Virus record (IMG/VR): IMGVR_UViG_3300049137_000157
Span: 135,469-199,468 of that record
Source: a virus
Strand: one strand, 5' to 3'
DNA: 64,000 nucleotides
Below, piece by piece: positions 31,203-49,251 of the stretch. Position 1 is the stretch's first letter, and the number at the start of each line of letters is the position of its first letter. Made by a program: the position numbers and the translations under genes. Under the pieces are notes generated by a model, which did no database searches, was not told the DNA's origin, and saw only the letters and a program-made list of their open reading frames with translations.

Positions 31203-31242
31203 TTCGGGAGTGCGCGGGGCGGGAGTTCCGTGCACTCCAGTG
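31203..31242 (+). ncRNA. TTC-hairpin-(A)GTG intergenic element, representative copy
   Basis: ttcgggagtgcgcgg...ccgtgcactccagtg; near-identical copy at 31834-31869. Confidence 0.55.
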
Positions 31243-31276
31243 GTCCGCATGGGTCGGACGGAATCGACGGAAGGGA

Positions 31277-31813
31277 ATGGGAGACATGGCGCTTTTCACG
31301 GAGTACCCGGGTCGGGAGCGGAATCCTCTCGGCGGCCAGGAGTCGGCGGAGTGGGACGCGTGGATCCGGGAGGCGGCGCGCATGGCGTCGGAGGCTCGGG
31401 AGGCGTTGCGGGACATGCCGTTGACGCACGACAACGGCAAGGTCAACGTCCTGCGATACATGTCCGTCAACACGGAGCGGGAACACTCCGGCGTTCTGGC
31501 GGAATGGGAGTCCGTTCAGCGTCGGGACCGGGCGGGTGACACGGGGGCGCGGGATCGGTTCGAAGTGGGCCTGATCTCCCGGGTGATGTCGGCGCACGGC
31601 GCGGCGGAGTTCGCCCGGCAGCAGGGGTACGGCCCGGACGACACGACGGCGGGCGGTCGGCCCATGGCGGACGTGTCCGGGGAGTACATGCGGGCGTGCA
31701 CGATCCTCGCCCGGTACGTGGGAGTCGACCCGATGACCGTGGTCACGTGTGACGGGGACCAGGCGAGGCTGTCGGCGCTCCGGCCGTTCGGGACGGACCG
31801 CACGGACGGCTGA
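31277..31813 (+). CDS. hypothetical protein
   Basis: acggaaggg RBS. Confidence 0.7.
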   Translation: MGDMALFTEYPGRERNPLGGQESAEWDAWIREAARMASEAREALRDMPLTHDNGKVNVLRYMSVNTEREHSGVLAEWESVQRRDRAGDTGARDRFEVGLISRVMSAHGAAEFARQQGYGPDDTTAGGRPMADVSGEYMRACTILARYVGVDPMTVVTCDGDQARLSALRPFGTDRTDG

Positions 31814-31903
31814 CATCTGCCGGAGCGTCGGGTTTCGGGAGTGCGCGGCTTTGGTCGTGCATTCCAGTGATCCGAAAGGTTCGGACGGAAAGGGGCAAGG
31901 GAA

Positions 31904-32437
31904 ATGCGGGTATTCGGGTATGAGGTGCGCACGCGTAACGTCCGGGAGTCGCGGACGGACGTGCACCGGCTGGAATTCAGCGCGCCGGACCACCAGACGG
32001 CCCAGGCGTGGCTGACCGGGTGGGCGGGAGTGACCGGCCGGGAGATCATCGACTGGGAGCTGATCGCGGACGGCTGCACCTTCCGGGAGCAAGCGGCGCG
32101 GGACCTGTCCGCCATGGCGGAGCGCATCGCGCCCGCCTACAACGCCGCCATGGTGGAGCCGGTGCACTCCGGGGAGTACATCGTCGGGAAGATGTGGCTC
32201 CCGAACGGGTGGGGCGTGTCGGTTTCCTCCAAGATCAGCGAGAACCACTGGGTGCGGTCGGAGTTCGTCACGATCCGGGAGGACCCCACGGACCGGCACG
32301 GATTCGCGATCGACTTCCCGCTTCCGGAGTTCCCGGTCGCGGGGGGTGCGGCCCCGGAGAATCCGGAGGCGGACGGGGAGATCCGGCGCGTACTGGACCT
32401 GCTGTCGAAGCTGCCCCCGGTGTTCCCGGAGGCGTGA
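31904..32437 (+). CDS. hypothetical protein
   Basis: acggaaagggg RBS. Confidence 0.7.
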   Translation: MRVFGYEVRTRNVRESRTDVHRLEFSAPDHQTAQAWLTGWAGVTGREIIDWELIADGCTFREQAARDLSAMAERIAPAYNAAMVEPVHSGEYIVGKMWLPNGWGVSVSSKISENHWVRSEFVTIREDPTDRHGFAIDFPLPEFPVAGGAAPENPEADGEIRRVLDLLSKLPPVFPEA

Positions 32438-32538
32438 CCGGCGGGCGCGGCGGGACGGGAGCGTACGGCTTGACCGGCCGTGCGCTCCAGCCTCTCCGTG
32501 ATCACGGTTGGGGACGGAATCGGAAAGGATCAAAGAAC

Positions 32539-32961
32539 ATGGGTGAGAACCTGCGCACGTACAAGCTGTCGGACAACATCTCGGTGGAGCTGCCGAGCGG
32601 GACGGAGATCGTCACCCTGGGGGCCCGGTCCGGCAGCAAGGCGGGATGGTGGCACTACGCGGACGTTCTGGCGGCCGGGAAGCCGTTCAGGACGTCCGGC
32701 TCCCTGTGCGGCGGCCCGGTCAGCTACCGACAGGACATCGGCCGACTCGACACGTCGTGGCGGGAGAGCCTGCACTCGGCGGACTACGTCGTGTGGTCCT
32801 ACTGGACGCCGATCGCGTGGCGGACGCCGGACGGGTGGGTGATCCCGGCGGCCGGGACGTTCGGGAGCGGTGTGGAGTCGTCGACGACCGTCGCGCAGAT
32901 CAACAAGATTCGGACGGCGGTCGGCAGCTTCACGGAGTACCGGGAGCGCGTGGACGGCTGA
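32539..32961 (+). CDS. conserved phage protein (YVVxSYxTPIAW motif)
   Basis: YVVWSYWTPIAWRTPDGW...STT. Confidence 0.7.
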   Translation: MGENLRTYKLSDNISVELPSGTEIVTLGARSGSKAGWWHYADVLAAGKPFRTSGSLCGGPVSYRQDIGRLDTSWRESLHSADYVVWSYWTPIAWRTPDGWVIPAAGTFGSGVESSTTVAQINKIRTAVGSFTEYRERVDG

Positions 32962-33033
32962 CCTTCGGCGCGGCGTACGGGAGCGGGCAGAATGCGGGAA
33001 TGTCTGCCCGCTCCCCCTTTCGGGGCGTACACT

Positions 33034-33043
33034 GGCCTAGGTC
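33034..33043. promoter_or_regulatory. GGCCTAGGTC operator candidate abutting TACACT -10 box
   Basis: tacact-ggcctaggtc. Confidence 0.55.
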
Positions 33044-33066
33044 AACGGACAGGAGAGGAAACGGAA

Positions 33067-33693
33067 ATGAACGACGCCGAATACATCGACCTGGAAATGA
33101 GCAAGGCGGTCCGGGAGTCGGTGGAGACCGTGAACGTCAAGGCCCGGTCGGACGCCGGGGAGTCCCGTTGGGTGGCGATTCCGGCGCGCGTGTTCAACGC
33201 CGCCGTGGAGTCGATGATGGAGGAGACGAAGATCATGGACGACGAGACGTACGTCTTCCCGCACTGCCGGGAGCGCCGGGCGGCGGGCATCGAGATCGAC
33301 CACGGCGTGGCGCGCACCATCGCTTCCTGGTACCACAACGGCGGCATCACGGCGACGATCGCCCTGTCGTCGACCGGCACCATCACGGACGACCTGACCA
33401 TGTTCATGCTCCACGAGGGCGACTACGACAGTCAGCCGGAGGACGACCGGCTCGCCCTGGACATGCTGTGGTCGTACGTCGAAGCGCGGCGGCGTGCGGG
33501 AGACACCGGCAAGGTCCCCGGATGGGACAACATGTGGGCGGACTCCCTCGGCGGGACGCCGGGAGTTCCGGCGGCGTCCGTGACGCACCACGACGGCACC
33601 CCGAACTGTGGGAGGCGGGCGAAGGTCGACCTGGCCACGAAGGTCGGCAAGCACATCACGTGCCCGTACTGCTACGACATGGTCAACGGCTGA
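33067..33693 (+). CDS. hypothetical acidic protein with C-terminal zinc ribbon
   Basis: HH..C...CPYC. Confidence 0.7.
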   Translation: MNDAEYIDLEMSKAVRESVETVNVKARSDAGESRWVAIPARVFNAAVESMMEETKIMDDETYVFPHCRERRAAGIEIDHGVARTIASWYHNGGITATIALSSTGTITDDLTMFMLHEGDYDSQPEDDRLALDMLWSYVEARRRAGDTGKVPGWDNMWADSLGGTPGVPAASVTHHDGTPNCGRRAKVDLATKVGKHITCPYCYDMVNG

Positions 33694-33710
33694 CCGGGAG
33701 GGTGGAGACA

Positions 33711-33974
33711 ATGGCAGTCGAGTACGCGGACCCGTCTTTGGTGACGGAGGTCCGGGAGACGGACGTCCCGATGTCCGGCCAGACCACGAGTGGGTACGGC
33801 GGGCAGATCCCGACTCGCCACATGATCAAGTACGCCGGGGTGTGGCGACGCGTCTACGCCATGTCCTACGGCAACGGCGGGATCGCTTACGTCAAGGTCG
33901 GGGGACGGAACGTGACTCTGGACGCGGACACGGAGCACCGGCTGACCACGGGCGAGAGGGAGAAGGAAGCATGA
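33711..33974 (+). CDS. conserved phage protein
   Basis: GYGGQIPTRHMIKYAGVWRRVYAMSYGNGG. Confidence 0.7.
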   Translation: MAVEYADPSLVTEVRETDVPMSGQTTSGYGGQIPTRHMIKYAGVWRRVYAMSYGNGGIAYVKVGGRNVTLDADTEHRLTTGEREKEA

Positions 33975-34309
33975 GCAAGATCACGGGTCGGGAGCCCAAG
34001 CACTGGCACGACGAGAACGGCAGGCACCTGATGCCGGATCCCCGGCAATTCGCGGCCCCGCAACCGGTCATTCGGGACGGGTCGCCGACCGGCGAGATGT
34101 CGGGCAACAGCAAGGGGAACATCTGCCACGGGGATCCGGACCTGGCGGCGTACTGGGATCACCTGGACGAACACGACCGAGAGGTCCCGGAGCGGCGGCC
34201 CAACGACTCTCCGAAGGTGCGCGCTCTGTTCGATCAGATCGAGAACGGGGAGCGCACCATTTCCACGGCCCGGGAGTTGATCCGGACTCTCCGGCAGGCC
34301 GGGGAGTGA
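33971..34309 (+). CDS. hypothetical protein
   Basis: ATGA overlap. Confidence 0.6.
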   Translation: MSKITGREPKHWHDENGRHLMPDPRQFAAPQPVIRDGSPTGEMSGNSKGNICHGDPDLAAYWDHLDEHDREVPERRPNDSPKVRALFDQIENGERTISTARELIRTLRQAGE

Positions 34310-34406
34310 CGGAGCGGTGATCTTCGGGGGCGTTCCGGTTCGCCGGGACGTACCTCGTGGGTTCCCGGTTCGGGAGCATGGACTGAACAGGAAAAGGGAG
34401 GGTGAC

Positions 34407-34625
34407 GTGGCTGCGGCCGACAAGATCACCATGGATGGGGAGCACGGGAAGTACGTAACCCGGGTCGGTGCATTGGATCTGATGATCCTCCGGTACCTGC
34501 CCGCGTCTCTCGAATCGCTTCGGGAGTTGATCCGGGAGCGTCAGGGGGATCCGGGATACTCCGTGGCCACGGTGACGGAGGCGCTGATGATCCTGGCCAC
34601 GCTCGACGGACACGGACTGATCTAG
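34407..34625 (+). CDS. hypothetical protein
   Basis: GGGAGG RBS. Confidence 0.55.
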   Translation: MAAADKITMDGEHGKYVTRVGALDLMILRYLPASLESLRELIRERQGDPGYSVATVTEALMILATLDGHGLI

Positions 34626-34647
34626 TCGACGGAACAGGAGAGGGAGC

Positions 34648-34986
34648 ATGGCGAAGAGTTCGATCATGTTCGCTTGTCGGACGGACGACGAGGCGTTCTA
34701 CCTGCTGCGGGCGGTCCGGGAGTACGGAAAGAACCTGGACGATCCCGCCGGGTACGCGCCCGCCAGCGAAGAGGGTGCGGGCTTCGGCTGGGATGCCGTT
34801 GTGCGGGCGGCCCTGGACATGGGACGAGGATCCGTCACGCACATGTCACTGCGCATGGCGAAGGCGTTCCTGGACGCCATCACGGCGTACCGGGACTGCA
34901 CGGTGAACCGGGACGACAACGTGCACTACGTGGAGACGTTCCACACGTTCTCCACCCTGATCGAAGAGGCGGAGGGTGCCAAGTGA
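34648..34986 (+). CDS. hypothetical protein
   Basis: RBS, codon bias. Confidence 0.7.
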   Translation: MAKSSIMFACRTDDEAFYLLRAVREYGKNLDDPAGYAPASEEGAGFGWDAVVRAALDMGRGSVTHMSLRMAKAFLDAITAYRDCTVNRDDNVHYVETFHTFSTLIEEAEGAK

Positions 34987-35447
34987 TCTACGTGCTGATC
35001 ATGGAACCGTGCTGTGAGAAGTCGGCCCCGTGGTACGTCCCGCAGCCGCAGCCGTACTACGTGCGGACGCCGGGGTGGTCGGACTCGTGCGACCACACGG
35101 ACAAGCGGGTGCCGGTTCTCACGGAGCACGCGGACGCCGAGGGCGCACGAGAGCGTCACTCCCTGACGCTGGGGTCCCGCTGCCTGGAAGGCTGGATGTG
35201 GGAGGGTGACCTGCCTCCGGAGGGGGAGCGCTTCCGGATCACGTCCGTCGGCGGGTCCCACCTCACCGGTCTCCTGCACGGCAAGCCGAGCGACATGTGG
35301 TTCCCGACCGCCGATCTGGCACGGGAGCACGTGAACCGGCAGCGGGAGTCCCTGTACAACATCGTCGGGGACCGGGACATGGTCGTCCGCTGGTCGTCGT
35401 ACAACCTGCCGGTCGGGACGGCTCTGGAAGTGGGGCAACCGGCGTGA
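34983..35447 (+). CDS. hypothetical protein
   Basis: GTGA overlap. Confidence 0.65.
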   Translation: MIYVLIMEPCCEKSAPWYVPQPQPYYVRTPGWSDSCDHTDKRVPVLTEHADAEGARERHSLTLGSRCLEGWMWEGDLPPEGERFRITSVGGSHLTGLLHGKPSDMWFPTADLAREHVNRQRESLYNIVGDRDMVVRWSSYNLPVGTALEVGQPA

Positions 35448-35599
35448 CGCGGCGCAGCAACGTGATCAATCCGGGCGGCAAGGGGCCGCGCGTGTGGTGC
35501 GGTCGCTGCAAGGGCTGGGTGTGGACGCAACAGAGGCCGTGGCCGAAGGCCGGTTACGTGGCCAAGCCGCATCAGCACGACGCCGGAAAGATGGGTTAG
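35444..35599 (+). CDS. small CxxC..H protein
   Basis: GTGA overlap; WCGRC...KPHQH. Confidence 0.5.
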   Translation: MTRRSNVINPGGKGPRVWCGRCKGWVWTQQRPWPKAGYVAKPHQHDAGKMG

Positions 35600-35601
35600 C
35601 A

Positions 35602-35793
35602 GTGGCTTTCGTGATCGCGCGAAAAGACGGGGTCACCTATTCCTCCGAGACGGCGGCATGCCTGACGGTGGCCAGTAGCTACCAAACCCCGGTGAGGTGG
35701 GTTCGGGAGGACCCGTTCATCGTCATTGAGTACGACGGAGGGGCGAAGGTGACGTTCCCGATGGCGGACTTGATCGAGATCGTCGAAGGCTGA
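35602..35793 (+). CDS. hypothetical protein
   Basis: Fills gap; start uncertain. Confidence 0.5.
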   Translation: MAFVIARKDGVTYSSETAACLTVASSYQTPVRWVREDPFIVIEYDGGAKVTFPMADLIEIVEG

Positions 35794-35879
35794 CGGAGCG
35801 TCGGCTTTCCGGCGGGCACGGGAGCGATTCCGTGCACGTCGGTGATCCGGAAGGTCCGGAACGGAAATGGAGAAGAGAC

Positions 35880-36599
35880 ATGACGCGTATCGAGCGATCG
35901 ATCGTCACGGACATGGACGTGATCACGGAGAGTGACTTCGAGTCCGTCAACTGGGGCGACGCCATCACCAGCGCGATCCCCGAGGGGCGCACCCGGGAGG
36001 ACATGATCGAGTCGCACGACTGGGTGGAGGGGGAATATCTCCGGCCCAAGTTCGACTCTGTCGCTGCGTTCAAGCTGCACCGGTCGACGCTGGACAGCGG
36101 GCAGGACGACGACCACGGGAACGTGATCGACTGGCACCGCTGGTCGGCCCTGTTCCGTGACGTCACGGGAGTGGACGGCGGCCCGTGCGCCATCCTGCAC
36201 GCCGATCCGCAAGGGTTCGTGTCGGCGGAGTGGTACGAAGACCCGGCGGAGGCGGAGAAGGCGTGGGCGGAGCTGGAGGAGGAGTGGGACGCCTACGAGA
36301 CGTCGTGGGAGCACGAGGGTTCCATCCTTTCGGGGACGACGCGAGAGCGGGATCGGATTCCTGCGTTCTTCGCAGCCCTGCTGCGGGTCGACGGACATCG
36401 GGCGGCAACGTTGGCTCGGAAGTACGGATACAACCCCGAGCTGTCCGACTCATGGATGGACTCCACGGGGCCGGATGCCCGGGAGGAGTTCCTGAACGAT
36501 CTCGACACGGCCCTCAACAACGCCGCGCCGGAGACGCACTACTTCGGAACGGCCGAGGGGAACGATTCCGACTTCGGCTTCTGGCGGATCGACGACTGA
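35880..36599 (+). CDS. acidic two-domain phage protein with YFGxxxGxxSDFGFW motif
   Basis: GSILSGTTR..IPAF...APETHYFGTAEGNDSDFGFW. Confidence 0.75.
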   Translation: MTRIERSIVTDMDVITESDFESVNWGDAITSAIPEGRTREDMIESHDWVEGEYLRPKFDSVAAFKLHRSTLDSGQDDDHGNVIDWHRWSALFRDVTGVDGGPCAILHADPQGFVSAEWYEDPAEAEKAWAELEEEWDAYETSWEHEGSILSGTTRERDRIPAFFAALLRVDGHRAATLARKYGYNPELSDSWMDSTGPDAREEFLNDLDTALNNAAPETHYFGTAEGNDSDFGFWRIDD

Positions 36600-36685
36600 C
36601 GGAGCGCCGCTGTTCCGGGGAGCACGGAAGCAATTCCGTGCCCCTCGGTATGCCGGAAGGTCCGGATAGGAAAGGAAGTGTGCGC

Positions 36686-36865
36686 GTGGCTTTCACCGTG
36701 ACTCACGACGAGGATTCGGTCCAGCTCATGGACGACGGGGATGAGATCGTGTCCTGGACGATGGCGGAGTGGGAGGACGACCCGGCCCTCCCGCTGGCCA
36801 TCACCAACGCCATCAAGATCGGATACGAACAGGGTCCGGATGCTGTCCGTGCCCTGATCGACTGA
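36686..36865 (+). CDS. small acidic protein
   Basis: ggaaagg RBS. Confidence 0.6.
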   Translation: MAFTVTHDEDSVQLMDDGDEIVSWTMAEWEDDPALPLAITNAIKIGYEQGPDAVRALID

Positions 36866-36884
36866 CGGAAAGGGAGAAGAGGGC

Positions 36885-37316
36885 ATGACGCTGGACGCCT
36901 GGACGATCACCGACGTGGACGGCAAGTGGGACTTTCGTGTCGTCGTGGAGCCGGACAACAACACGGAGCACCCGAGGGACCACGCCGACGTCTACGACCC
37001 GGACTTCATGGAGCGGGAGAACGGCCCGGAGTCGGCGCAGTGGGCGCGGGACGCCCTTGCCGCCTACGACCGGGGCGAGTGGCAGTGGGTGACGCTCGCC
37101 GTGACGCCGGAGCTGAAGAGCAGCGGCGTCACGTTCGATGGGGCCACGGCATCCGTCGGAGCCTGCGACTGGGGGTGGCTTCCCGGCGGCCCCGACGACA
37201 AGGGAGTCTGGACCAGCAACCGGGACTACGCCCGGGAGGCGTGGCTCAACGACCTGATCGACGAGTCTCGGGGGATCCTGGAGGACAAGCTCCCCAAGGT
37301 CCGGGACGCTCTCTAG
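36885..37316 (+). CDS. acidic phage protein
   Basis: acggaaagggagaaga RBS; YDRGEWQWV..ASVG. Confidence 0.75.
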   Translation: MTLDAWTITDVDGKWDFRVVVEPDNNTEHPRDHADVYDPDFMERENGPESAQWARDALAAYDRGEWQWVTLAVTPELKSSGVTFDGATASVGACDWGWLPGGPDDKGVWTSNRDYAREAWLNDLIDESRGILEDKLPKVRDAL

Positions 37317-37368
37317 AGGATCCACCTGCACGAACCTGAACACCCGACACGGAATGGGAGAAGAGAAC

Positions 37369-37584
37369 ATGCCGAAGTACGACCGCGACAAGGCCCGACT
37401 GGTGCACGAGGAGACGGGTGAGGAGATCATGCCGGGGAGCGTGGTGCCGGACTTCCGGGGCAACGACACTCGGTTCGACTTCATCTCGATCCTGCCGTCG
37501 CCCGGCAAGAGCGGCAAGATCATCTGCGGTGACCGGGAGTACTACCCCGGCGTCCTGAACGCCCGCATCGAGATCATGAACTAG
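37369..37584 (+). CDS. hypothetical protein
   Basis: RBS; REYYPGVLNARI. Confidence 0.7.
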   Translation: MPKYDRDKARLVHEETGEEIMPGSVVPDFRGNDTRFDFISILPSPGKSGKIICGDREYYPGVLNARIEIMN

Positions 37585-37624
37585 TAGCACTTCGCCCGTC
37601 AGCAGCAGACCGAGGGAGAAAATC

Positions 37625-37801
37625 ATGATGGACGCTGTCGACCAGAAGGTGCAGGTCATCCGGGACGGACAGGGGTGGTCGGACGAAACACTCGGAGCCC
37701 TGGCGATGAACTTCATCAGCGCCGACCCGGATCTGACCGAGCGGTTCATCGCGCGCCTGCGAGAGATCGCCGCCGAAGAGAACGAGTCCGCCGAGGGCTG
37801 A
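37625..37801 (+). CDS. hypothetical protein (not in ORF track)
   Basis: gagggag RBS, high GC3. Confidence 0.6.
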   Translation: MMDAVDQKVQVIRDGQGWSDETLGALAMNFISADPDLTERFIARLREIAAEENESAEG

Positions 37802-37825
37802 CGCATCCCGCACGGTGATCGAACG

Positions 37826-37860
37826 GGGCGGCCGGGAGCGAGGAGCCCGGCCGCCCTTTT
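37826..37860 (+). terminator. intrinsic terminator
   Basis: gggcggccggg...cccggccgccc-tttt. Confidence 0.7.
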
Positions 37861-37957
37861 GGATCCCTGATTCGGGAATTCCATCGCAGGTTTCTGCAAA
37901 GAGATCGCACCTGTCGGTTGTGAATGGCACAATGAGGGCTCGGAAAGGGAGAGGGAT

Positions 37958-38551
37958 ATGTGGATCAAGGACTTGCGGCCGATGTTCGGTCCGAGGGTGA
38001 CGGTGCAGACGGAGAACGGTGTCCGGTACGGCCTCGTGCGCGTCCGGTACGAGAACGGACACGTGAACGCCGGTCACTGTGAAGTCGAGTTCACGGACGG
38101 CGACCCGGCATTGATCCCCTTCGAGGCCATCACGCCGGGACCGAACGCCATCGACACCCCGACGGGAGTGACCTTCCCGGACATCCGGAAGGCGTACCGA
38201 CCCCTGTTCCTTGGGGACACTCGGCTGCGCCACGTGTCGGGGGTGAACCTCACCATCCCCGGCGACATGGAGGCGCTGCGGGAGCTGCGGGAGAAGCTGC
38301 GGGACGGCATACACCTGCACGTGACGGACCACGACTACGGGAACCGGAGCGGGGAGCGGGTGATCACGGGGATCAACGACGCCGGGATGTGGTCCACCCT
38401 GACTCCGCGCCGCAAGACGGCGGTGGAGAGCCATCTCATGTGGCCGGAGAACGACTTCATCGTGGACGGCAACACGCTCCACATCGAGAAGCCGTACCAC
38501 GCCTACACGGGCGGCCGGGCGAAGATCCTGACGCTCATGTTCCACGTCTGA
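37958..38551 (+). CDS. hypothetical protein
   Basis: cggaaagggagagg RBS. Confidence 0.75.
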   Translation: MWIKDLRPMFGPRVTVQTENGVRYGLVRVRYENGHVNAGHCEVEFTDGDPALIPFEAITPGPNAIDTPTGVTFPDIRKAYRPLFLGDTRLRHVSGVNLTIPGDMEALRELREKLRDGIHLHVTDHDYGNRSGERVITGINDAGMWSTLTPRRKTAVESHLMWPENDFIVDGNTLHIEKPYHAYTGGRAKILTLMFHV

Positions 38552-38569
38552 TCGGGAGGGAGAAGCAAC

Positions 38570-38983: not shown

Positions 38984-38999
38984 CCACACGAACGGGAGG

Positions 39000-39293: not shown

Positions 39294-39358
39294 CCCGGCA
39301 CGCTTCGGGGGAGCACGGGACCGTCCCGTGCTCCTCCGTGGTTCATCGGGAGGGTGGA

Positions 39359-40366: not shown

Positions 40367-40591
40367 ATGTCTGCTGCCGACGCGGTGGAGATGGGGGACC
40401 TGGACCTTGGCGTCCGAATGGTCGTCAAGACGTACGACATGAACAGCGGCACGACCGAGAACGCGTGGGACGTTCTCGTGGAGAGGGGGGCACACGGCGA
40501 TCTCGGAGTGGCGTTCGATCTCCTGGCGAACGCGGTCGGTGAGGGCAAGGCGCGGGAAATCCTGACGTCGATCGGCGTCGATATCCCCTGA
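40367..40591 (+). CDS. hypothetical protein
   Basis: RBS. Confidence 0.65.
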   Translation: MSAADAVEMGDLDLGVRMVVKTYDMNSGTTENAWDVLVERGAHGDLGVAFDLLANAVGEGKAREILTSIGVDIP

Positions 40592-40673
40592 CCGGGAGGT
40601 GCCCTAGGGTGGCTGGGCTTCGGCCCGGCCGCCCGGGAGTGCCGCCGGTCAGGCGGACGGAAAGGAGAAGGAA

Positions 40674-40919
40674 GTGGCGTTCAAGTTCAAGGTCACCCGT
40701 CTCGCCGACGGGACGACTAAGGAGATCGTCCGGGAGTCCGATCCGGCCGACGACAGGGACCGGCTGTTCACCGAGGTCTACCGCACTCTGCGGATGTTCA
40801 GTGCGTTCGTCAGTTCGTACACGGCGCACGACTATGCCCGACGGATCGTGGAGATCGAGCCGGGGACGGAGTCCGGGACCATCCTGCCGGGGTGGATCTT
40901 CCGGATCGATCAGGTCTGA
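40674..40919 (+). CDS. hypothetical protein
   Basis: acggaaaggagaagg RBS. Confidence 0.7.
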   Translation: MAFKFKVTRLADGTTKEIVRESDPADDRDRLFTEVYRTLRMFSAFVSSYTAHDYARRIVEIEPGTESGTILPGWIFRIDQV

Positions 40920-42441: not shown

Positions 42442-42525
42442 TCGCGCCGTGAGCTTCGGGCGCGCACCGGATCCCGAGAGGGTCGGGTGCGCGTCCGTGT
42501 CCTACGGACGGAAGGGAGAAGAGAG

Positions 42526-42861
42526 ATGCACGAGACGAATCCGTGCGGGTGCGATGTCCTCAAGATCGGGGACTGGTTCACCGAGCTGGGATCGGAGTAC
42601 GTGGTCCTGGCGGTCCAGTACTACGAGGTGGCCGGAGGGGAGTCCCGGGGGTTCGTTCTGGGGTTCGCCCCGGACATCCACGAGTACCGGGTTTGGGAGA
42701 TCGACGAGAACGGCGTCCGGATCAGCCGGAGGCGGACGAACATCGAGGACAACGCGTTGAACGACTACGCCGTTCTCTCGGTGACCGCCCTGTACACGGC
42801 GAGGAACCGGATGGCTCCGAAGCTGACTTTCGGCCACGTCACCGACCGGGACGTGCTGTGA
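42526..42861 (+). CDS. hypothetical protein
   Basis: acggaagggagaaga RBS. Confidence 0.7.
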   Translation: MHETNPCGCDVLKIGDWFTELGSEYVVLAVQYYEVAGGESRGFVLGFAPDIHEYRVWEIDENGVRISRRRTNIEDNALNDYAVLSVTALYTARNRMAPKLTFGHVTDRDVL

Positions 42862-43139
42862 CTCGGTTCGACGACTTCCGGATTCAGCCGCCCGAGGAGT
42901 GGGGGCGGCTCGACATCGGGGAGGACGACTCGGAGGCGTACGCCGTATGGGTGGCGGCGGACGACGTGGAACAGGCCCGGACGGCGTATCTCTCGTACCG
43001 TGCGGCCGACGACGAGTACGCGATCCAGATGCTGCGGATGGGCTGCATGCGGGGCACTCTTCGGGAGGCCCGGAAGGCATCCGAGAACCGGCCGGGGACC
43101 CGGGTGTTCCGGGTCTGCAACGACCCTTCGAAGACGTGA
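42858..43139 (+). CDS. hypothetical protein
   Basis: GTGA overlap. Confidence 0.6.
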   Translation: MTRFDDFRIQPPEEWGRLDIGEDDSEAYAVWVAADDVEQARTAYLSYRAADDEYAIQMLRMGCMRGTLREARKASENRPGTRVFRVCNDPSKT

Positions 43140-43153
43140 GGAGAAACGGCGGC

Positions 43154-43321
43154 ATGGGTGACACGACCGACTACAGGGTCGCTCAGATCCGGGACCTCGG
43201 GAGCCTGGACGACGGCGGACGGATCAAGCTGATGACCGACACCGGCCAGACGCACTGGAACCGCATGTCGGCCGACAAGATGCGGCGCATCGCCGCCATC
43301 GTGGCCGAGCCCGAGGGCTGA
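43154..43321 (+). CDS. hypothetical protein
   Basis: GAGGAG RBS; IKLMTDTGQTHWNRM. Confidence 0.6.
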   Translation: MGDTTDYRVAQIRDLGSLDDGGRIKLMTDTGQTHWNRMSADKMRRIAAIVAEPEG

Positions 43322-43339
43322 CGAAAGGAGAAGAAAGCG

Positions 43340-43582
43340 ATGTTCGACCGCGAGGACATGATGGACATGCAGTACCGGGAGGAGAACCCCGGATACGAAC
43401 GGGAGGTCGGCCTGACGGCTTCGGATCTGGAGGACTGTGATCCCGAGATCGCACTTCTGGTGGCCGACAAGTACGCCCACGACAACAAGCGCCGTCGGGA
43501 CGGCAACCTGCGAACCGAGAACGACTTCCTGCGGGGACTCCTGGAGGAGAACGGCATCGAGATCCCGGAGGGGGAGCACTGA
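43340..43582 (+). CDS. acidic protein
   Basis: acgaaaggagaaga RBS. Confidence 0.7.
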   Translation: MFDREDMMDMQYREENPGYEREVGLTASDLEDCDPEIALLVADKYAHDNKRRRDGNLRTENDFLRGLLEENGIEIPEGEH

Positions 43583-43815
43583 TGGGTCGGACGATCCACC
43601 TGAAGCCCGGGGAGCGGCTGCGCGTTGTGACGCCCGGCGGCGCGGTCGACATCGAAGATTTGCCGAGCGTGCACGAGAGCGGACAGGACATCGTCCGCGT
43701 GGACGTGATCACCGACCGGAACCCGGTCACCCCGATGAACCGGGGCAAGAGCTGGGAGCTGATCGAGGACGACCCGACGGGTGTTGTTCGCATCCTCAGC
43801 AAGCCGACCGACTGA
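43582..43815 (+). CDS. hypothetical protein
   Basis: TGATG overlap. Confidence 0.65.
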   Translation: MGRTIHLKPGERLRVVTPGGAVDIEDLPSVHESGQDIVRVDVITDRNPVTPMNRGKSWELIEDDPTGVVRILSKPTD

Positions 43816-43832
43816 CTGACGGAGGGGACCTC

Positions 43833-44213
43833 ATGCTGCACATGGCCACGTTCACGGGAGTGGAACCCGCTCGGGCGACGTTCCTGGCGGTGTTGGACAC
43901 CAACGCCGAGGATCACCGGGGACGGATCATGGGACGGATCTTGTTCTTCGACCTGCGCTACCCGGATCACGTCGGGAAGTACCCGCACGTCAGCGTCCCG
44001 TTCGACGTGGCGGGGCAGTTCGTCACGGAGGCTCAGCCCGGTTCGATCCACGAGAGCGGATACAAGCTCTACGCGCCGGGAGGTCGGTTGATCCTCTGGG
44101 GGACGGACGAGAGCTGGGCGATACCGGCCAGCGAACACCACCGCTTGTCGGAGTGGGTGGCGGAGTCCTACAGCCGGGAGGGGCGTCTGGTCCCCGAGGT
44201 CGACGACTTCTGA
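43833..44213 (+). CDS. conserved phage protein (F+DxRY...GQFV motif)
   Basis: ILFFDLRYP...GQFVT...LILWG...W. Confidence 0.65.
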   Translation: MLHMATFTGVEPARATFLAVLDTNAEDHRGRIMGRILFFDLRYPDHVGKYPHVSVPFDVAGQFVTEAQPGSIHESGYKLYAPGGRLILWGTDESWAIPASEHHRLSEWVAESYSREGRLVPEVDDF

Positions 44214-44277
44214 CGCTCAGACGGTTCGGGAGTAGGGCAGGGGAGCCATTCCCCTGCCCTTTCCAGTGTCGGTTGAG

Positions 44278-44293
44278 TATGATGGCCTAGGTC
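44278..44293 (+). promoter_or_regulatory. TATGAT -10 box abutting GGCCTAGGTC
   Basis: tatgat-ggcctaggtc. Confidence 0.6.
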
Positions 44294-44456
44294 ACCCGGG
44301 AGGTGGATGGGGATGCGACTGCACGAGGCTCCCGCATGGGTGCGCCGTCTACGAGAGCGACCAGATCTACCTCCCGTCGGAGATCTCCCGGCCGTACGGG
44401 TGGGCCATCATCCGCAAGATCGACACACAGCAGAGCTGAACGGACAGGAGAAGGAC

Positions 44457-44840
44457 ATGATCGAAAACAGTCCGGTGATCGTCACCGAGGACCAGCTCCG
44501 AGAGATCGGGCAGGCAGCCCAGTGGTTCACCAACGGACGGTTCAAGCTGGTTGTCGGGGCGGGATACAGCCCTGACGGCCGGTACATGAACCTCGGTGAG
44601 GGTTCCCCGGCCCTGGCGTGGAACGACCCGGCCGAGGCCGCCGCCTACCTCCTGGGAGCCATGCTCGGAACGGCCTACACGACGGGCGACCTGATCCCTC
44701 AGGAGATCGTGGAGAGCCTGCGTCCGGTCCTCACCGAGCTGGGTATGGCGGGCGGGGAGTCCTCTCCCACCGGCAAGATCATCCCGGCGCGAATTCGGGA
44801 GCTGGAAGCGCTCGGCCGGTGGGACGCCGGTCAGCGCTGA
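44457..44840 (+). CDS. hypothetical protein
   Basis: caggagaagg RBS before ATG 44457. Confidence 0.7.
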   Translation: MIENSPVIVTEDQLREIGQAAQWFTNGRFKLVVGAGYSPDGRYMNLGEGSPALAWNDPAEAAAYLLGAMLGTAYTTGDLIPQEIVESLRPVLTELGMAGGESSPTGKIIPARIRELEALGRWDAGQR

Positions 44841-44874
44841 CCGACCACTCGACAGGAAGAGGGGAGGGAAGAAC

Positions 44875-45246
44875 ATGACGTGGCGTGACAAGGTCCCGGA
44901 GAAGGAACTGCCCCACTGGGAGGCAAGGTGGCAGGACCATCTCGCCCGGGTGCGTCAGGCGTTTCGGAACGGCACCGTCTACGACTACTTCACCTGGGGT
45001 GAGCTGACCCCGGAGGACCGTCGACTCCTGGTCGGCATGGACGCAACCTCGGCCCATTGGGCGGAGACCTCCGAAGGAAACCTCCGGCTGATGCCGTGGG
45101 GCCTGCCCCTGCATGCGAGCTACTGCGACAGCGATTTCCGAAAGGTCGTCTCGGTCGAGAGGGATGTCGTCAGGTACGCCAACGGGATGACCTGGGAGTT
45201 CCGCCCGAACAGCAAGATCGCGGTTCGGTTCACTGTTCAGAAGTGA
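44875..45246 (+). CDS. hypothetical protein
   Basis: RBS. Confidence 0.7.
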   Translation: MTWRDKVPEKELPHWEARWQDHLARVRQAFRNGTVYDYFTWGELTPEDRRLLVGMDATSAHWAETSEGNLRLMPWGLPLHASYCDSDFRKVVSVERDVVRYANGMTWEFRPNSKIAVRFTVQK

Positions 45247-45329
45247 CCTCGCCCCATGCGCTTCGGGCGCGCATCCCAGTTCGGGGTGTGCGTCCGTGCC
45301 GTATCGGACGGGAGAAGGAGAAACCAGCA

Positions 45330-45659
45330 GTGGCTACGTTCGACTACCTGAAGCCTGGCGAGGCCGTGAGACGGGCCTCCCCTCACGCTCGGGACTGGGA
45401 GAACATCGTCGGCTTGAAGGCGGCGGACGCCGGGCTGTTCCTGAAGGACAGGACTCGGGCCGGGTACCTGCGTGAGCCGTCGGATCCGTGGCGGGCTCAC
45501 GCCTACGTGGAACGGTTCTTCCGCGAGATCCAGTCGGTGCAGTGGGCGAAGGACGCCGACCCCGGGGTGGCGGAGGTGTTCTTCACGGACGGGGAGTCGA
45601 CACTCCTGCACAAGTGGGACCTGCTGTGCGTCGAACGACCGATCGATGGAATCAACTGA
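45330..45659 (+). CDS. hypothetical protein
   Basis: gggagaaggag RBS. Confidence 0.65.
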   Translation: MATFDYLKPGEAVRRASPHARDWENIVGLKAADAGLFLKDRTRAGYLREPSDPWRAHAYVERFFREIQSVQWAKDADPGVAEVFFTDGESTLLHKWDLLCVERPIDGIN

Positions 45660-45697
45660 CCGTCGTACCCAGCAGTAGACATGAAGGGGAAGAGAGC

Positions 45698-45883
45698 ATG
45701 GACCTGACCATCGCCAAGGAAGACCTGTCCGACTGGATGGGGCGAAAGGTGACCGACGCCGAGGTGGAGTATCTGGCGGAAACCATCGGGTACTCCAGCG
45801 TTCCGGAGGCCATCGCCACCATCCTGGACGGCATGCCCAGCCACCGCCAGGTCGACGGCAGCGAAGAGGAGGATGGCGAGTGA
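45698..45883 (+). CDS. small acidic protein
   Basis: RBS. Confidence 0.6.
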   Translation: MDLTIAKEDLSDWMGRKVTDAEVEYLAETIGYSSVPEAIATILDGMPSHRQVDGSEEEDGE

Positions 45884-46149
45884 ATAGCGCCCTGGAGGTC
45901 AGCGACGCCGGACGGTACCGCTACAGCTCGACCTACCCGGACTTCCCGGCCATGTTCGAGGGTGAGGAAGTAGGCGTGATCCTGGAGGTCGAAGGAGGCT
46001 TCCGGGCCTACATCCGGCCCGCCGTTCCGGGAGGCGCGCCCTGGTGGGGGCCGGAGAAGGTGTTCCAGTCGACGGCGATCGACGACCTGGAGACGGAGCT
46101 GATGAACCGGGGTGTGATCCCCGTGCGCACCCTCGGGGGGAGGAGCTGA
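45880..46149 (+). CDS. hypothetical protein
   Basis: GTGA overlap. Confidence 0.65.
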   Translation: MNSALEVSDAGRYRYSSTYPDFPAMFEGEEVGVILEVEGGFRAYIRPAVPGGAPWWGPEKVFQSTAIDDLETELMNRGVIPVRTLGGRS

Positions 46150-46319
46150 TGTTGGCGGTGGAAGTGGAGCGCTGCTCCCGGTGCCGACAGCCCTTCGAGA
46201 CGGGAGAGCGCCGCTACGCCGACCCTTGCTGCGGGGCTCCGGACTGCGACGGTCTGATGAACGAGTCGCACTTCCGATGCCTGTCCCGAGTCGACCAGGA
46301 GATCCACCGGGAGTACTGA
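46149..46319 (+). CDS. small zinc-binding protein
   Basis: CSRC...CC..DC...HxxC; TGATG overlap. Confidence 0.6.
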   Translation: MLAVEVERCSRCRQPFETGERRYADPCCGAPDCDGLMNESHFRCLSRVDQEIHREY

Positions 46320-46413
46320 CCCCGTGGCGTTCGGGGGCGTCCGGCTTCGGCCGGGCGTCTCAGTGCCCTACGGGTGAAAGGAAAAGAACACGACCTGAGG
46401 AAAGGAAGCGGTC

Positions 46414-46674
46414 ATGGGTGAAGCGCCGTACGGGATGCCCGCTGCGCAGCGTGGCGGAATCCGCGAACGGGCCAGTGCGGGGGTCATCGGCAAGGTGGAG
46501 GTCACGCCCTGCGGACTCATCGTCCTGCCTCTCGGACGCCTGACGGATCCGGGAGACGGTACGGTCTGGGAACCGACCGGCCGGATCGCTCTCGTACCCA
46601 GCGAGTGGAAGGCTCTGGTCGCCGAGATCGAAGCCAAGAAGGCCGACTTGGGCAGCCCGAACCGGTCGGACTGA
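46414..46674 (+). CDS. hypothetical protein
   Basis: ggaaagg RBS. Confidence 0.6.
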   Translation: MGEAPYGMPAAQRGGIRERASAGVIGKVEVTPCGLIVLPLGRLTDPGDGTVWEPTGRIALVPSEWKALVAEIEAKKADLGSPNRSD

Positions 46675-46698
46675 TCTTGCTGAACGGAAAGGAGAGAA

Positions 46699-47094
46699 GT
46701 GGACAAGCTGGGTGGCTTGATCCGGAGGGACGGGATCGAGGTACAGGCGATCGAGGTACCTCCTCGGAATGGCCGACGCTTTCTGGTCGCACTCCTCAAG
46801 GACGATCGGAAAGGGGCGAACCGCCTCTCGGTTCTCGGCCCTTACGAGGCCCCGGAACCTCCGGACGCTTTCGAGGTGTTGTCGTACCTCTTCCTTGTCG
46901 TCACCGCTTCCGTGGAACGCACCGATTCCTACGAGACGTGGGTGAGCGACGTGTCGGCACCCACGGATCGCAAGCCGTGGGAGAAGTACCCGAAGAGGCT
47001 GTACACGCAGTGGGTAGCGACGGCCGACCGACTGCGCGATTTCCTCGGAGACCGGTACGACGAGTACCGGAACTCCGACCTGGACAAGAGCTGA
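46699..47094 (+). CDS. hypothetical protein
   Basis: acggaaaggagagaa RBS. Confidence 0.7.
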   Translation: MDKLGGLIRRDGIEVQAIEVPPRNGRRFLVALLKDDRKGANRLSVLGPYEAPEPPDAFEVLSYLFLVVTASVERTDSYETWVSDVSAPTDRKPWEKYPKRLYTQWVATADRLRDFLGDRYDEYRNSDLDKS

Positions 47095-47108
47095 GAAGGA
47101 GAAGAAGC

Positions 47109-47309
47109 GTGATCACAACGATCCTCAACACCGCCCGCCAGGAAGATCTGGAGCAGGCTCGGGTCTTCGTGTCCAACCACCTGCACCTCCCCCTGGAGGA
47201 CGTCTCCCGGAAGGTGGCGGTGGCGTACATCTGCAAGCACTTCCGTCAGGGTTCCTACGAGTACTGGGAGGGCTGGGAGGCGATGCTCGCCGCCGACCGC
47301 CGGAACTGA
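47109..47309 (+). CDS. hypothetical protein
   Basis: aaggagaaga RBS. Confidence 0.6.
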   Translation: MITTILNTARQEDLEQARVFVSNHLHLPLEDVSRKVAVAYICKHFRQGSYEYWEGWEAMLAADRRN

Positions 47310-47345
47310 CGCCGGTGTGCTGGTTGCCACACATCTGTAAGCGGC

Positions 47346-47374
47346 TGGACGGCAACGGCCTAGGCCGATAAAGT
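47346..47374 (+). promoter_or_regulatory. sigmaA/HrdB-like promoter with CGGCCTAGGCCG in the spacer
   Basis: TGGACG-17 bp-TAAAGT. Confidence 0.55.
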
Positions 47375-47445
47375 CGGGAGGGTTTCCGGGGGTTGTTCCC
47401 GGCACCCTCCCGACGTCGTATCGGGATCGGAAGGAGAAGAAAAGG

Positions 47446-47877
47446 ATGCTCAGCGAAGATCTTGCCGTCTGGATCCAGGAGGAACCCGCTCTCCTGGAGC
47501 GTGTTCGTCAGTTCATCGAGCAGGACAAGCGGGACAGGAGTTTCATCCTCGGCCCTTGGCTGACGGACGCCCTGTTCGGCATCGGGACTTCGTATCGGGA
47601 ATCCGACCCGGTGCGGGAGGCCCTTCAGCGGGGACGGGACCGCCTTCTCGGCACTTACACGCGAGACGACTTCCAAGGTCTCTTGCTGGACGAGTGGCAC
47701 GAGATCGCTCGCAGCCTGGAGCGTCCCGTCTGTCAGTGCGAGCACCAGCGGCACTTCGAAGGCGGGCTGCACGCCTACCTCAGCGAACATGTACTGGCGG
47801 GTGACCGACGGGCACAGCACGTCGGCCCGATCTGCGACCCGTGCGCCGAGAAGTGCATGAAGGACTACCTGATCTAA
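47446..47877 (+). CDS. helical protein with C-terminal Cys/His domain; paralog family with 47887, 50141, 55899
   Basis: LAVWIQEEP...EWHEIARSL; CQC.H..H...CDPC. Confidence 0.7.
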   Translation: MLSEDLAVWIQEEPALLERVRQFIEQDKRDRSFILGPWLTDALFGIGTSYRESDPVREALQRGRDRLLGTYTRDDFQGLLLDEWHEIARSLERPVCQCEHQRHFEGGLHAYLSEHVLAGDRRAQHVGPICDPCAEKCMKDYLI

Positions 47878-47886
47878 GGAGACGGC

Positions 47887-48207
47887 GTGACAACGGCAAC
47901 CGAAGAGATTCTGGACTGGGTTCGGAACGACCATCCGGTCTGCGATCACCTGGCGCGTGCGGCGGAGAAGAGCAACGGGCCGGAGCGGGTGCAGTGGTAC
48001 ATCACCGAGCTGCTGTACGGGAGCAGCGGGCCGGTGCTGTACCGACGGCGGCATCAGGTCTTCGTCGGCAGCCTGGCAGGCTTCGAGGAGCACCTGCCGG
48101 GTCTGGTGCGTGACCGTCTCGAAGAGATCGGCGCGAGCCTGTCCGAAGTCGACTGGGAGACCGTCGCCCGGGAGGCCCGAACGGTGATCAACGGGGAGGG
48201 TTCATGA
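47887..48207 (+). CDS. helical acidic protein (W..ND...VDW..VA family)
   Basis: ILDWVRND...SEVDWETVAR. Confidence 0.7.
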   Translation: MTTATEEILDWVRNDHPVCDHLARAAEKSNGPERVQWYITELLYGSSGPVLYRRRHQVFVGSLAGFEEHLPGLVRDRLEEIGASLSEVDWETVAREARTVINGEGS

Positions 48208-48539
48208 CCGCACACAACATCGTCGGCGACGACGGAACCATGATCGTCCACCCGCGAACCAAGGAGCACGCACACCGGGGGAACGGATACGCCTGGTGCT
48301 GGCCCTGCGGAGCCTGGGAGGACATCCCGTCCTGGTGGTTCGAGACAGAGGTCGGTCTTCGCCGGGTCATCCAGGCCGCTTACGAGGGCTTCGGCGGACG
48401 CCTCATCGACATTCCGGCTGAGATCTGGCTGGCGATCACCCTCGCGTACACCCGATTCCGCCAGTGGCGGGACTTCGATACTCGGCTCGACTTCTGGCGA
48501 GCCTTCCAAGAAGAACAGCCCCTTCGGGAGAAGACGTGA
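48204..48539 (+). CDS. hypothetical protein
   Basis: ATGA overlap. Confidence 0.65.
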   Translation: MTAHNIVGDDGTMIVHPRTKEHAHRGNGYAWCWPCGAWEDIPSWWFETEVGLRRVIQAAYEGFGGRLIDIPAEIWLAITLAYTRFRQWRDFDTRLDFWRAFQEEQPLREKT

Positions 48540-48823
48540 GTCAGCCGAACCGCTTCAAGGCCACCCCGGAAGAGATCATGGACTTTCTCCGGGAACACTT
48601 CGCGGAGGACCAGCTCGAACCCTTCCAGTGGGCGATCGTCCAGAACGGCCTGCGTGAAGGGGTCGCCGAGATTCGCAACGAGCTGAACCGAGGCGGCTAC
48701 CACACGCTCCTGAAGCAGTGGCACGACGGCTTCCACTACGCCGTCAACATGCTCGACCCGGACGACAAGGAGTACCGGGGCCACTGGCCGTCCAACCTGC
48801 TCGGCCAGACGAAGAAGAAGTAA
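48536..48823 (+). CDS. hypothetical protein
   Basis: GTGA overlap. Confidence 0.65.
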   Translation: MSQPNRFKATPEEIMDFLREHFAEDQLEPFQWAIVQNGLREGVAEIRNELNRGGYHTLLKQWHDGFHYAVNMLDPDDKEYRGHWPSNLLGQTKKK

Positions 48824-48841
48824 CGGAGAGGGAGAAGAAAA

Positions 48842-49165
48842 GTGGATCGCGTTCAGATCACCCGAGGCACCTTCGAGTCGGCCGCCTACGAGTCCGACAT
48901 CGACATCGACGACGACATCCGCTGGGAGGCCGCCGGATCCTTCCGGGGGATGTCCCGGCCGGACTACCAGTACCCCGCGATCATCGTCGAGGGCGTCGGC
49001 ACCTTGGCCTCCTTCGCCGCTAACCTCGCCCTCACCCTGGTCCGGGACCCGCGCCCCGGCGACCCCAGCCCGAGCGTCGTCCCGCGCATCGTGTCCTCCT
49101 ACCGCTCCGACAGCATGGGTCACGACGCGATCTACGGTTTCCCTCTGATCGACATCATCGACTGA
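48842..49165 (+). CDS. acidic hypothetical protein
   Basis: RBS; YRSDSMG...YGFP. Confidence 0.7.
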   Translation: MDRVQITRGTFESAAYESDIDIDDDIRWEAAGSFRGMSRPDYQYPAIIVEGVGTLASFAANLALTLVRDPRPGDPSPSVVPRIVSSYRSDSMGHDAIYGFPLIDIID

Positions 49166-49251
49166 CGGCCCGCCCGGCTTCGGGAGCGGCCCCGGACCCA
49201 CGCCGGGGCCGTTCCAGTGGCCTGACGAACCGAAATTCCCGCACCGAGGAG

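Follow-up and report, generated by a model that had tools for sequence, protein, structure and literature searches.

The eleven hairpins that lie on the sense strand at positions 31203 to 49219 of the window, i.e. of the whole stretch of 64,000 nucleotides analysed here, constitute together with one degenerate copy a real family as judged by covariance models, and we are on balance inclined to regard them, from their sequences, as candidate sites at which host RNase III would process the message between cistrons, as in phages T7 and SP82. The notion that they are RNase III signals stems from a small mismatch box at the foot of the hairpins, which shares its letters with an internal loop of the Streptomyces rpsO-pnp hairpin that this enzyme reportedly cuts.

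A family of intercistronic hairpins

The hairpins are found between small genes in the 199-kb genome of a large Streptomyces phage (65% G+C) and are confined to one 18-kb block of its small-gene arm. The initial annotation had described at least eleven intergenic hairpins with conserved TTC...(A)GTG flanks, and all eleven are indeed present where it placed them, with the sequence TTC[G/C]GG...(N)GTG, the only exception being the copy at 36613, which ends in GTA. Each of the eleven is preceded by a TGA stop codon, and all copies lie on the coding strand between a stop codon and the next ribosome-binding site, a polycistronic context that is read from the gene layout rather than from mapped transcripts. 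The order of the unit is stop codon, a spacer of 9-13 nt (in 24 of 34 copies compared from four phages), UUC, a G+C-rich upper stem with its loop, GUG, 10-30 nt and the ribosome-binding site. The start codon follows GTG at a distance of 18-50 nt in the same 34 copies, the upper stem spans 13-16 positions in 29 of them, and the loops vary freely in both length and sequence, being formed by 3-7 nt or by an inner hairpin. The element ACGGAAAGG, previously listed along with the motif, turned out to be the ribosome-binding site used generally throughout the arm.

A covariance model built from the eleven copies gives these 28-50 bits and the next match in the window 20 bits, while a second model built from the 34 copies recovers the same eleven and in addition a degenerate copy at 32451-32496 on the plus strand (21 bits; 20-21 bits overall, E about 0.014-0.023), whose stem GGGAGCG.../...CGCUCCAG is recognizable in the sequence and lacks the TTC foot. 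The exact UUCG/AGUG box is found in copy 1 (31203-31242, 49-50 bits, and evident from the sequence), copy 2 (31834-31869, 40-44 bits), copy 8 (44225-44268, 25-28 bits), copy 10 (46330-46365, 44-45 bits) and copy 11 (49179-49219, 40-45 bits), all like the remaining copies on the plus strand. The variable pair of the box is G-C in copy 3 (34323-34359, 30-32 bits) and C-G in copy 4 (35807-35844, 48-49 bits), and the GUA end of copy 5 (36613-36650, 42-44 bits) replaces U.G by U-A; copies 6 (39304-39340, 49-50 bits), 7 (42455-42499, 44-47 bits) and 9 (45262-45298, 37-38 bits) complete the set. On the 3' side of copy 8, at 44278-44293, the sequence TATGAT-GGCCTAGGTC resembles a promoter or operator. 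As to the pairs of copies that had been called near-identical, the basal 12-15 bp of the stem are indeed common to both members and the loops differ; for 35807 and 36613 the flanking DNA is without similarity.

The family extends to the cultured relatives Satis, Kela and Frankenweenie, which have 9-14 matches to the model each (E<=0.1), located in the small-gene arm and, except for a few weak ones, on the coding strand. Three IMG/VR contigs hold 3-9 copies each and a fourth has one borderline match; the family comprises more than 50 natural variants, which come from six phage genomes or more. Elsewhere in the 199-kb genome the eleven-copy model detected no further copies (best score 17.5 bits), and Rfam 15, searched with positions 28-64 kb of the window at the gathering score and at E<=1, gave no match for the hairpins. 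We likewise found no description of the motif in the literature, and a search for work on hairpins in BK-cluster phages returned nothing relevant. A strict pattern of the commonest hairpin subtype has no matches in 301 Streptomyces genomes, and a covariance model search of three such genomes was empty, a weak negative given that the scoring covered only 150 out of about 22,000 candidates. It should also be mentioned that a loose pattern without the TTC anchor mostly hit chance matches in IMG/VR, where the model confirmed only 4 of 80 loci, and that scanning for TTCSGG plus a fold is useless as a detector, since everything folds at 65% G+C.

Covariation, mismatch box and outer helix

The proposal that the stems covary across copies is borne out by the 34 copies, in which 10 of 13 stem pairs show compensatory changes, the covariation score is 0.556 as compared to 0.197 in shuffles (reached in 0 of 500) and 0.07-0.15 with slid partners, and 95% of the cells are paired as opposed to 76% in shuffles. 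The reverse strand scores only about 19 bits against about 49 bits for the sense strand, and G.U pairs are frequent in the stems; taken together these two observations suggest that selection acts on RNA rather than on DNA.

The six letters UUC...GUG are fixed in the family and meet at the foot of the stem whatever its length, forming the pairs U.G, U.U and C-G followed by either G.A or a Watson-Crick pair. This last, variable position, i.e. the nucleotide after UUC and that before GUG, is G-C in 14 copies, C-G in four, A-U and U.G in one each and unpaired in 12, the unpaired state being G.A in the copies reading CCAGUG. Among the eleven copies of the window six have a Watson-Crick pair instead of G.A, which leaves only U.U beside U.G.

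The second short hairpin that had been described behind most copies is present in only about half of them, and its structure is no stronger than that of shuffled sequence (mean z -0.39). More often, the segment downstream of GTG instead forms an outer helix with the one in front of TTC, and the flanks of a copy pair better with one another than with those of other copies (0 of 2000 permutations). Since the segment 5' of UUC pairs with the segment 3' of GUG, the whole element can be regarded as a single, irregular helix of about 25 bp that has the box at its centre, although several copies have a short or imperfect outer helix. Folds that include the flanks have z-scores of -3.2 to -5.7 (-3.4, -3.2 and -3.6 for copies 4, 10 and 11), and in the case of copy 2 the region 31820-31890 folds at -40 kcal/mol with a z-score of -5.7 and contains a helix of about 25 bp, flanks included. 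The hairpins hence have the build of RNase III signals, i.e. about two helical turns, at least 20 bp and a central internal loop.

The host rpsO-pnp hairpin and competing explanations

In the rpsO-pnp hairpin, an autoregulatory site of RNase III (AbsB), the enzyme of S. coelicolor reportedly cleaves either side of a [4/4] internal loop (Chang et al. 2005, as summarised in PMC10126417), and judging from this review and from our own fold the loop in question appears to be an AGUG/UUCG box. In 29 of 30 Streptomyces genomes the sequence of the hairpin is ...UCGGU-AGUG-GC...GC-UUCG-AUCGA..., the box being invariant and the tip variable, and conservation down to the letter extends well past the box. 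The host and phage hairpins are both G+C-rich and intergenic, span about two turns and carry a central 4x4 box with U.G, U.U, C-G and G.A, and the same '.(.' signature is seen in the host hairpin and in the phage folds that include the flanks. The strands are however swapped, in that UUCG belongs to the 5' arm of the phage hairpins and to the 3' arm of the host hairpin. Outside the box the sequences are not alike, the hairpin is present once in the host as opposed to eleven times in the phage, and the G.A of the host is replaced by a Watson-Crick pair in the six phage copies mentioned above. After rotation the helix on the G.A side measures 11 bp in the host and 12-15 bp in the phage, and that on the U.G side about 10 and roughly 5-13 bp. 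When host loci totalling 167 kb are scanned with a simple descriptor of the box, nothing but those 29 rpsO-pnp hairpins is matched; the phage genome yields 8 of the 11 copies, as compared to 0-3 matches per shuffled genome, and no box in the host orientation. By our own arithmetic the six fixed letters would match by chance, in either orientation, with a frequency of about 5e-4. In its letters the box matches the rpsO-pnp internal loop with the strands swapped. The box is absent from the 16S rRNA processing stem of one Streptomyces genome, and it is therefore no general RNase III determinant; neither the review nor the papers examined give a consensus for Streptomyces RNase III sites, and the paper on RNase III and AdpA gives no site structure.

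If the elements are RNase III signals, they would act as RNA within long transcripts of the small-gene arm, which is probably early or accessory, and host RNase III would cut the polycistronic message between gene groups at the boxes. In the host the AGUG strand receives the primary cut, and as this strand is on the 3' side in the phage, a stable hairpin would remain on the upstream mRNA as a 3' cap, while the downstream part would be set free carrying a short leader, as is the case at T7 R1.1. Neither a phage-encoded RNase III nor a sigma-70 region 2 was found, and the search for a T7-type RNA polymerase (PF00940) in the phage was likewise negative, if weakly so given that its control was silent; presumably host enzymes are used. 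Two equivalent junctions of the same arm hold what the initial annotation called true ribozymes, which are better described as candidate type II hammerheads, since one reaches 22.7 bits where the gathering score is 37 and the other is without an Rfam match; their presence would fit selection for cutting between cistrons.

Of the alternatives, the one that fares best, unlikely as we consider it, is that the hairpins are left uncut and serve as terminators or attenuators without U-tracts, or as barriers by which the upstream cistron is stabilised against 3'-5' exonucleases. The hairpins are of high stability (mean -28 kcal/mol) and begin as close as 9-13 nt past the stop codon, and strong hairpins, with or without the box, are found in nearly every long gap of the arm; those lacking the box at other junctions imply that a generic hairpin function may be enough. 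There is also a precedent in the early region of phage phiC31, which, to go by the title of a paper by Ingham et al. (1995), reportedly has Rho-independent hairpin terminators without poly-U tails. On the other hand, a role in punctuation requires neither the UUC/GUG box nor the outer helix, and the U-tract is missing, as had been pointed out previously, there being no T-run after any of the 34 copies. A terminator scan found none at the hairpin sites, and no promoter or terminator consensus was found in the arm. Furthermore, recombinant mycobacterial RNA polymerase does not terminate at hairpins without U-tracts, and it has been suggested that nucleases may account for the earlier reports to the contrary (PMC3993855). 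The hairpins as plain terminators find little or no support.

It is less probable still that the box is recognised by an RNA-binding protein encoded by the phage, such as a translational regulator or antiterminator, and that the likeness to pnp is a coincidence or reflects other mimicry, e.g. of PNPase. Such recognition would agree with the restriction of the motif to one lineage and to one 18-kb block, and with the juxtaposition of the fixed letters irrespective of stem length, and the conservation of the host hairpin far past the box could likewise reflect a protein other than RNase III. However, no candidate protein was identified, the arm genes are almost all ORFans (Pfam searches with six of them and four larger genes of the window gave no match except a weak one to a portal protein), and RNase III is the only factor with a reported activity at this loop.

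The notion that the junction modules are mainly recombination linkers for the swapping of gene cassettes, similar to PeSL or attC elements, with the RNA structure being secondary, seems improbable to us to an even greater degree. It rests largely on one anecdote from Satis and Kela, which share an identical hairpin within an 82-nt block (4 mismatches) that extends exactly from stop codon to ribosome-binding site and is flanked by unrelated genes on both sides; four other hairpin pairs show homology on one side only. PeSLs of T4-type phages have the same stop-to-ATG layout and mediate shuffling, but a strong sigma-70 promoter is part of them and transcription ends at their stem-loop (PMC2839356), whereas the modules described here have no sigma-70-type promoter. 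Breakpoints coincide with 48% of the junctions that carry the hairpin, as compared to 41% for the other long gaps and 32% for the tight junctions, which is no clear enrichment; the comparison has a window-size bias in favour of the long gaps. The phage furthermore lacks a Y1 transposase gene (PF01797), and the G.U pairs and the strand specificity point to selection on RNA. The flanks TTCSGG...CNGTG are also unlike the attC core of integrons, RYYYAAC...GTTRRRY. Finally, although hammerhead-like cores occur at two junctions of the same arm, it is very improbable that the hairpins represent a novel type of small self-cleaving ribozyme in the hammerhead slot, since only six nucleotides are fixed, all within a regular helix, the loops (3-7 nt or an inner hairpin) vary freely, and there is neither a conserved junction or pseudoknot nor an Rfam match. 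Of the three functions initially put forward, RNase III sites have gained specific support from the rpsO-pnp box, while self-cleavage and recombination or single-stranded DNA sites have not.

Implications and relation to known systems

A 4x4 box kept constant on stems that vary freely, together with the same box in a hairpin that is reportedly cut, amounts to a testable recognition rule and would supply ready-made parts for cutting synthetic operons in Streptomyces. RNase III processing would also explain why the junction modules show better conservation than the genes between them. A more far-reaching idea, which we regard as speculative and rather unlikely, is that the phage copied the RNase III determinant by which the host PNPase is autoregulated, reversed it so that the main cut falls 3' of the hairpin, and spread it over 11 junctions. 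This would tie the expression of accessory genes to the state of host RNase III and PNPase, or alternatively the many copies could titrate the host RNase III/PNPase circuit during infection. In that event the box would be a cleavage code of actinobacterial RNase III, portable and dependent on orientation.

Several repeated intergenic structures resemble the hairpins in part. The terminators of the phiC31 early region are likewise intergenic, without U-tract and from the early region of a Streptomyces phage, but their reported function is termination as opposed to the processing proposed here. The REP elements of enterobacteria, which in E. coli can stabilise upstream mRNA, are also repeated imperfect intergenic palindromes with a conserved foot, but REPs are scattered over host chromosomes, where RAYT transposases mobilise them; the phage lacks the Y1 transposase and, as described above, the commonest subtype of our hairpins has no match in 301 Streptomyces genomes, so that they do not belong to the REPs or REPINs. 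The PeSL cassettes are likewise conserved modules that run from stop to ATG and contain a stem-loop and a Shine-Dalgarno sequence; they too are located in a plastic region next to ORFans and occur in identical form between unrelated genes. They differ by their promoter, which our modules lack except for a possible one after the copy at 44225; no promoter-like site is present at 31-40 kb, and the short distance from hairpin to ribosome-binding site likewise sets the modules apart from PeSLs. Close parallels, besides the host hairpin, are the RNase III signals of coliphage T7 mRNAs (R1.1 type) and of the early mRNA of Bacillus phage SP82 (Panganiban and Whiteley 1983), which are repeated intercistronic hairpins of long phage transcripts and are built in the same manner from an upper stem, an internal loop and a lower stem. 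These signals are read by host RNase III, which is only predicted for the present hairpins, and they belong to hosts of another phylum and have other sequences, whereas the box described here copies a known host site. If the prediction is correct, it would extend the processing of early messages known from T7 and SP82 to large actinophages.

The hairpin family and its structure

The virus record (199,468 bp with terminal repeats, the window being its final 64 kb) encodes a portal protein whose counterparts in the cultured Streptomyces phages Frankenweenie, Satis, Kradal, Kela and JustBecause (185-200 kb) share 72-73% identity with it; hardly anything can be aligned at the DNA level. From about 28 to 64 kb the genes are all small, all on the + strand and mostly without family matches, and they form overlapping or tightly packed runs. 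The gaps between these runs measure 60-160 nt, except for one of about 300 nt, and nearly all of them hold a single strong hairpin followed by ACGGAAAGGAG, the ribosome-binding site used arm-wide. The 11 intergenic hairpins reported by the initial annotation (window 31203-49219) are present as described. Covariance model R1, which is based on these hairpins, scores the 11 copies at 28-50 bits, the next window match (at 32451) at 20 bits, the same sites on the reverse strand at about 19 bits and nothing in the remaining 135 kb of the genome above 17.5 bits, while a model built from 34 copies (R2) recovers the 11 copies and the degenerate copy at 32451-32496. At E<=0.1, R1 has 9 matches in Satis, 12 in Frankenweenie and 14 in Kela, all the confident ones (E < ~0.01) being in the corresponding small-gene arm and on its coding strand. 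In IMG/VR, R1 has 9 matches in a 187-kb contig, 9 in a 168-kb contig and 3 in a 77-kb contig, with one borderline match in a contig of 34 kb. The commonest stem subtype is found twice in this arm, once or twice per examined stretch of the relatives' arms and in none of 301 Streptomyces genomes. The hairpins form a genuine, lineage-specific family that has not been catalogued.

The stem covariation proposed earlier is borne out by the 34-copy alignment, since the true pairing scores 0.556, whereas shuffles score 0.197 (0/500) and slid partners 0.07-0.15; 95% of cells are paired vs 76% in shuffles, and compensatory changes are seen at 10 of the 13 pairs. U6, U7, C8, G69, U70 and G71 are invariant. 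The base 3' of UUC covaries with the base 5' of GUG (G-C 14, C-G 4, A-U 1, U.G 1), the 12 copies unpaired at this position being the G.A of CCAGUG copies, and because of this covariation the stem foot, here called the box, reads U.G, U.U, C-G and then G.A or a Watson-Crick pair. The full UUCG/AGUG box occurs on the + strand in five of the 11 window copies (31203, 31834, 44225, 46330 and 49179), and the G.A mismatch is absent from the other six. The upper stem spans 13-16 positions in 29/34 copies with a mean free energy of -28 kcal/mol; most loops have 4 nt, and their sequence is free. Furthermore, nucleotides 5' of UUC pair with those 3' of GUG in an outer helix, own flanks pairing better than flanks mixed between copies (0/2000 permutations), and when the flanks are included, the fold is a single irregular helix, about 25 bp long and centered on the box (z -3.2 to -5.7). 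The "second hairpin" previously described downstream, present in about half of the copies and no better structured than shuffled sequence, arises when the downstream flank pairs in another way. G.U pairs are frequent and the strands asymmetric, which points to the element acting as sense-strand RNA. All 34 copies follow a TGA stop codon, which lies 9-13 nt before UUC in 24 of them, and the next start codon follows GUG after 18-50 nt; the outer helix would lie within the footprint of the terminating ribosome and the main hairpin just past it.

Candidate transcription signals and other RNA elements of the arm

At a strand switch, window 22000-25500 has a lower G+C (0.57-0.59), and a promoter-like divergent pair at 24128-24157 (-) and 24339-24368 (+) lies upstream of an 806-aa ORF (25509-27929) without Pfam match. 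The palindrome GGCCTAGG(C/T)C is found at 29231, 33034, 44284, 47357 and 57143, and also at 6342 and 20429, adjoined by TANNNT hexamers (before, TACACT and TATGAT; after, GA-TAAAGT and GA-TAGAGT), and such sites probably combine an internal promoter with an operator. Immediately 3' of the palindromes at 47357 and 57143 is a strong hairpin that would sit at the transcript 5' end. Other arm junctions carry hairpins without the box, and a second hairpin family (40589-40676, 50947-51039, 61342-61473) has the tip GGGCUUCGGYCC and a 3' arm ending in G(G/A)GAGUG(C)CG, its foot being unlike that of the R1 family. Type II hammerhead-like cores (GAAA, CCCC-UUCG-GGGG, GUC, CUGAUGA or CUGACGA) occur in stop-to-RBS gaps at 58499-58555 and 59059-59123, the initial annotation having spoken of true ribozymes at two equivalent junctions; the first scores 22.7 bits for RF02276, below the gathering score of 37, and the second has no Rfam match. 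No phage-encoded RNase III or sigma-70 was found, nor was a T7-type RNA polymerase detected, in a search whose control was silent.

Putative processing by RNase III and alternative functions

We read the R1 hairpins as putative processing signals for host RNase III, the most likely of the functions considered. Long arm transcripts, probably starting at a few internal promoter-like sites with GGCCTAGGYC palindromes and also in the A+T-richer divergent region around 24 kb, would be cut at the box. Provided that the enzyme handles the AGUG strand in the same way as in the host hairpin, it would cut mainly just 3' of the phage hairpin, which would be kept on the upstream message as a 3' cap, and the downstream message would be freed with a short leader. 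The hammerhead cores at two arm junctions fit selection for cutting between cistrons.

Terminators without poly-U have reportedly been found in phiC31, to judge from the title of a 1995 paper, and the hairpins might likewise be plain terminators, or barriers to exonucleases, instead of sites of cutting. This seems rather unlikely; against terminators, no T-run follows any of the copies, as noted from the outset, and hairpins without a U-tract do not stop recombinant mycobacterial RNA polymerase (PMC3993855). A barrier role alongside cutting is possible. Recognition of the box by a phage RNA-binding protein is less probable again, no candidate for such a protein having been found. Recombination linkers, also suggested initially, draw support from one striking case, an 82-nt block with 4 mismatches common to Satis (L004:32130-32230) and Kela (L009:8245-8345), which spans exactly stop codon to ribosome-binding site, includes an identical 38-nt hairpin and is flanked on both sides by unrelated genes; the closest analogue would be the PeSL cassettes of T4-type phages. 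Breakpoints are however not clearly enriched at R1 junctions, where neither a promoter nor an integrase-type core was found; a Y1 transposase was not found either, and we regard this function as slightly more doubtful still. That the hairpins form a new self-cleaving class is highly improbable, as the invariant letters number only six and lie inside a helix.

Likeness to the host rpsO-pnp hairpin

RNase III of S. coelicolor prefers G-C duplexes and cuts the rpsO-pnp read-through transcript on both sides of the [4/4] internal loop of the intergenic hairpin, primarily on the 5' side (review of Streptomyces RNases, PMC10126417). The first host site compared with the phage box was this hairpin, and in 29 of 30 Streptomyces genomes from which the region was retrieved it reads GCCGGUC-C-UCGGU-AGUG-GC...loop...GC-UUCG-AUCGA-A-GACCGGC, lower stem and box being letter-identical and the tip differing in length and sequence (L137:1945-2010, L138-L165). 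The duplex element 5'-UUCG-3'/5'-AGUG-3' is identical in host and phage hairpins, and in the RNAfold structures of both, one G-C pair is flanked by unpaired A and U. Across 167 kb of host DNA a simple box descriptor matches the 29 pnp hairpins and nothing else, and in the phage it matches 8 of the 11 copies, vs 0-3 matches per shuffled genome, and by our own arithmetic the six invariant letters would match by chance, in either orientation, with a probability of about 5e-4. The box is however absent from the host 16S processing stem and is therefore not a general determinant; the RNase III option of the initial annotation has the identity with the rpsO-pnp loop in its favor, and this stem, the six window copies without G.A and the boxless hairpins at other junctions against it. 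The putative determinant is unusually explicit and testable. AGUG lies on the 5' arm in the host and on the 3' arm in the phage, and after rotation the G.A side measures 11 bp in the host and 12-15 in the phage, the U.G side about 10 bp and roughly 5-13, respectively.
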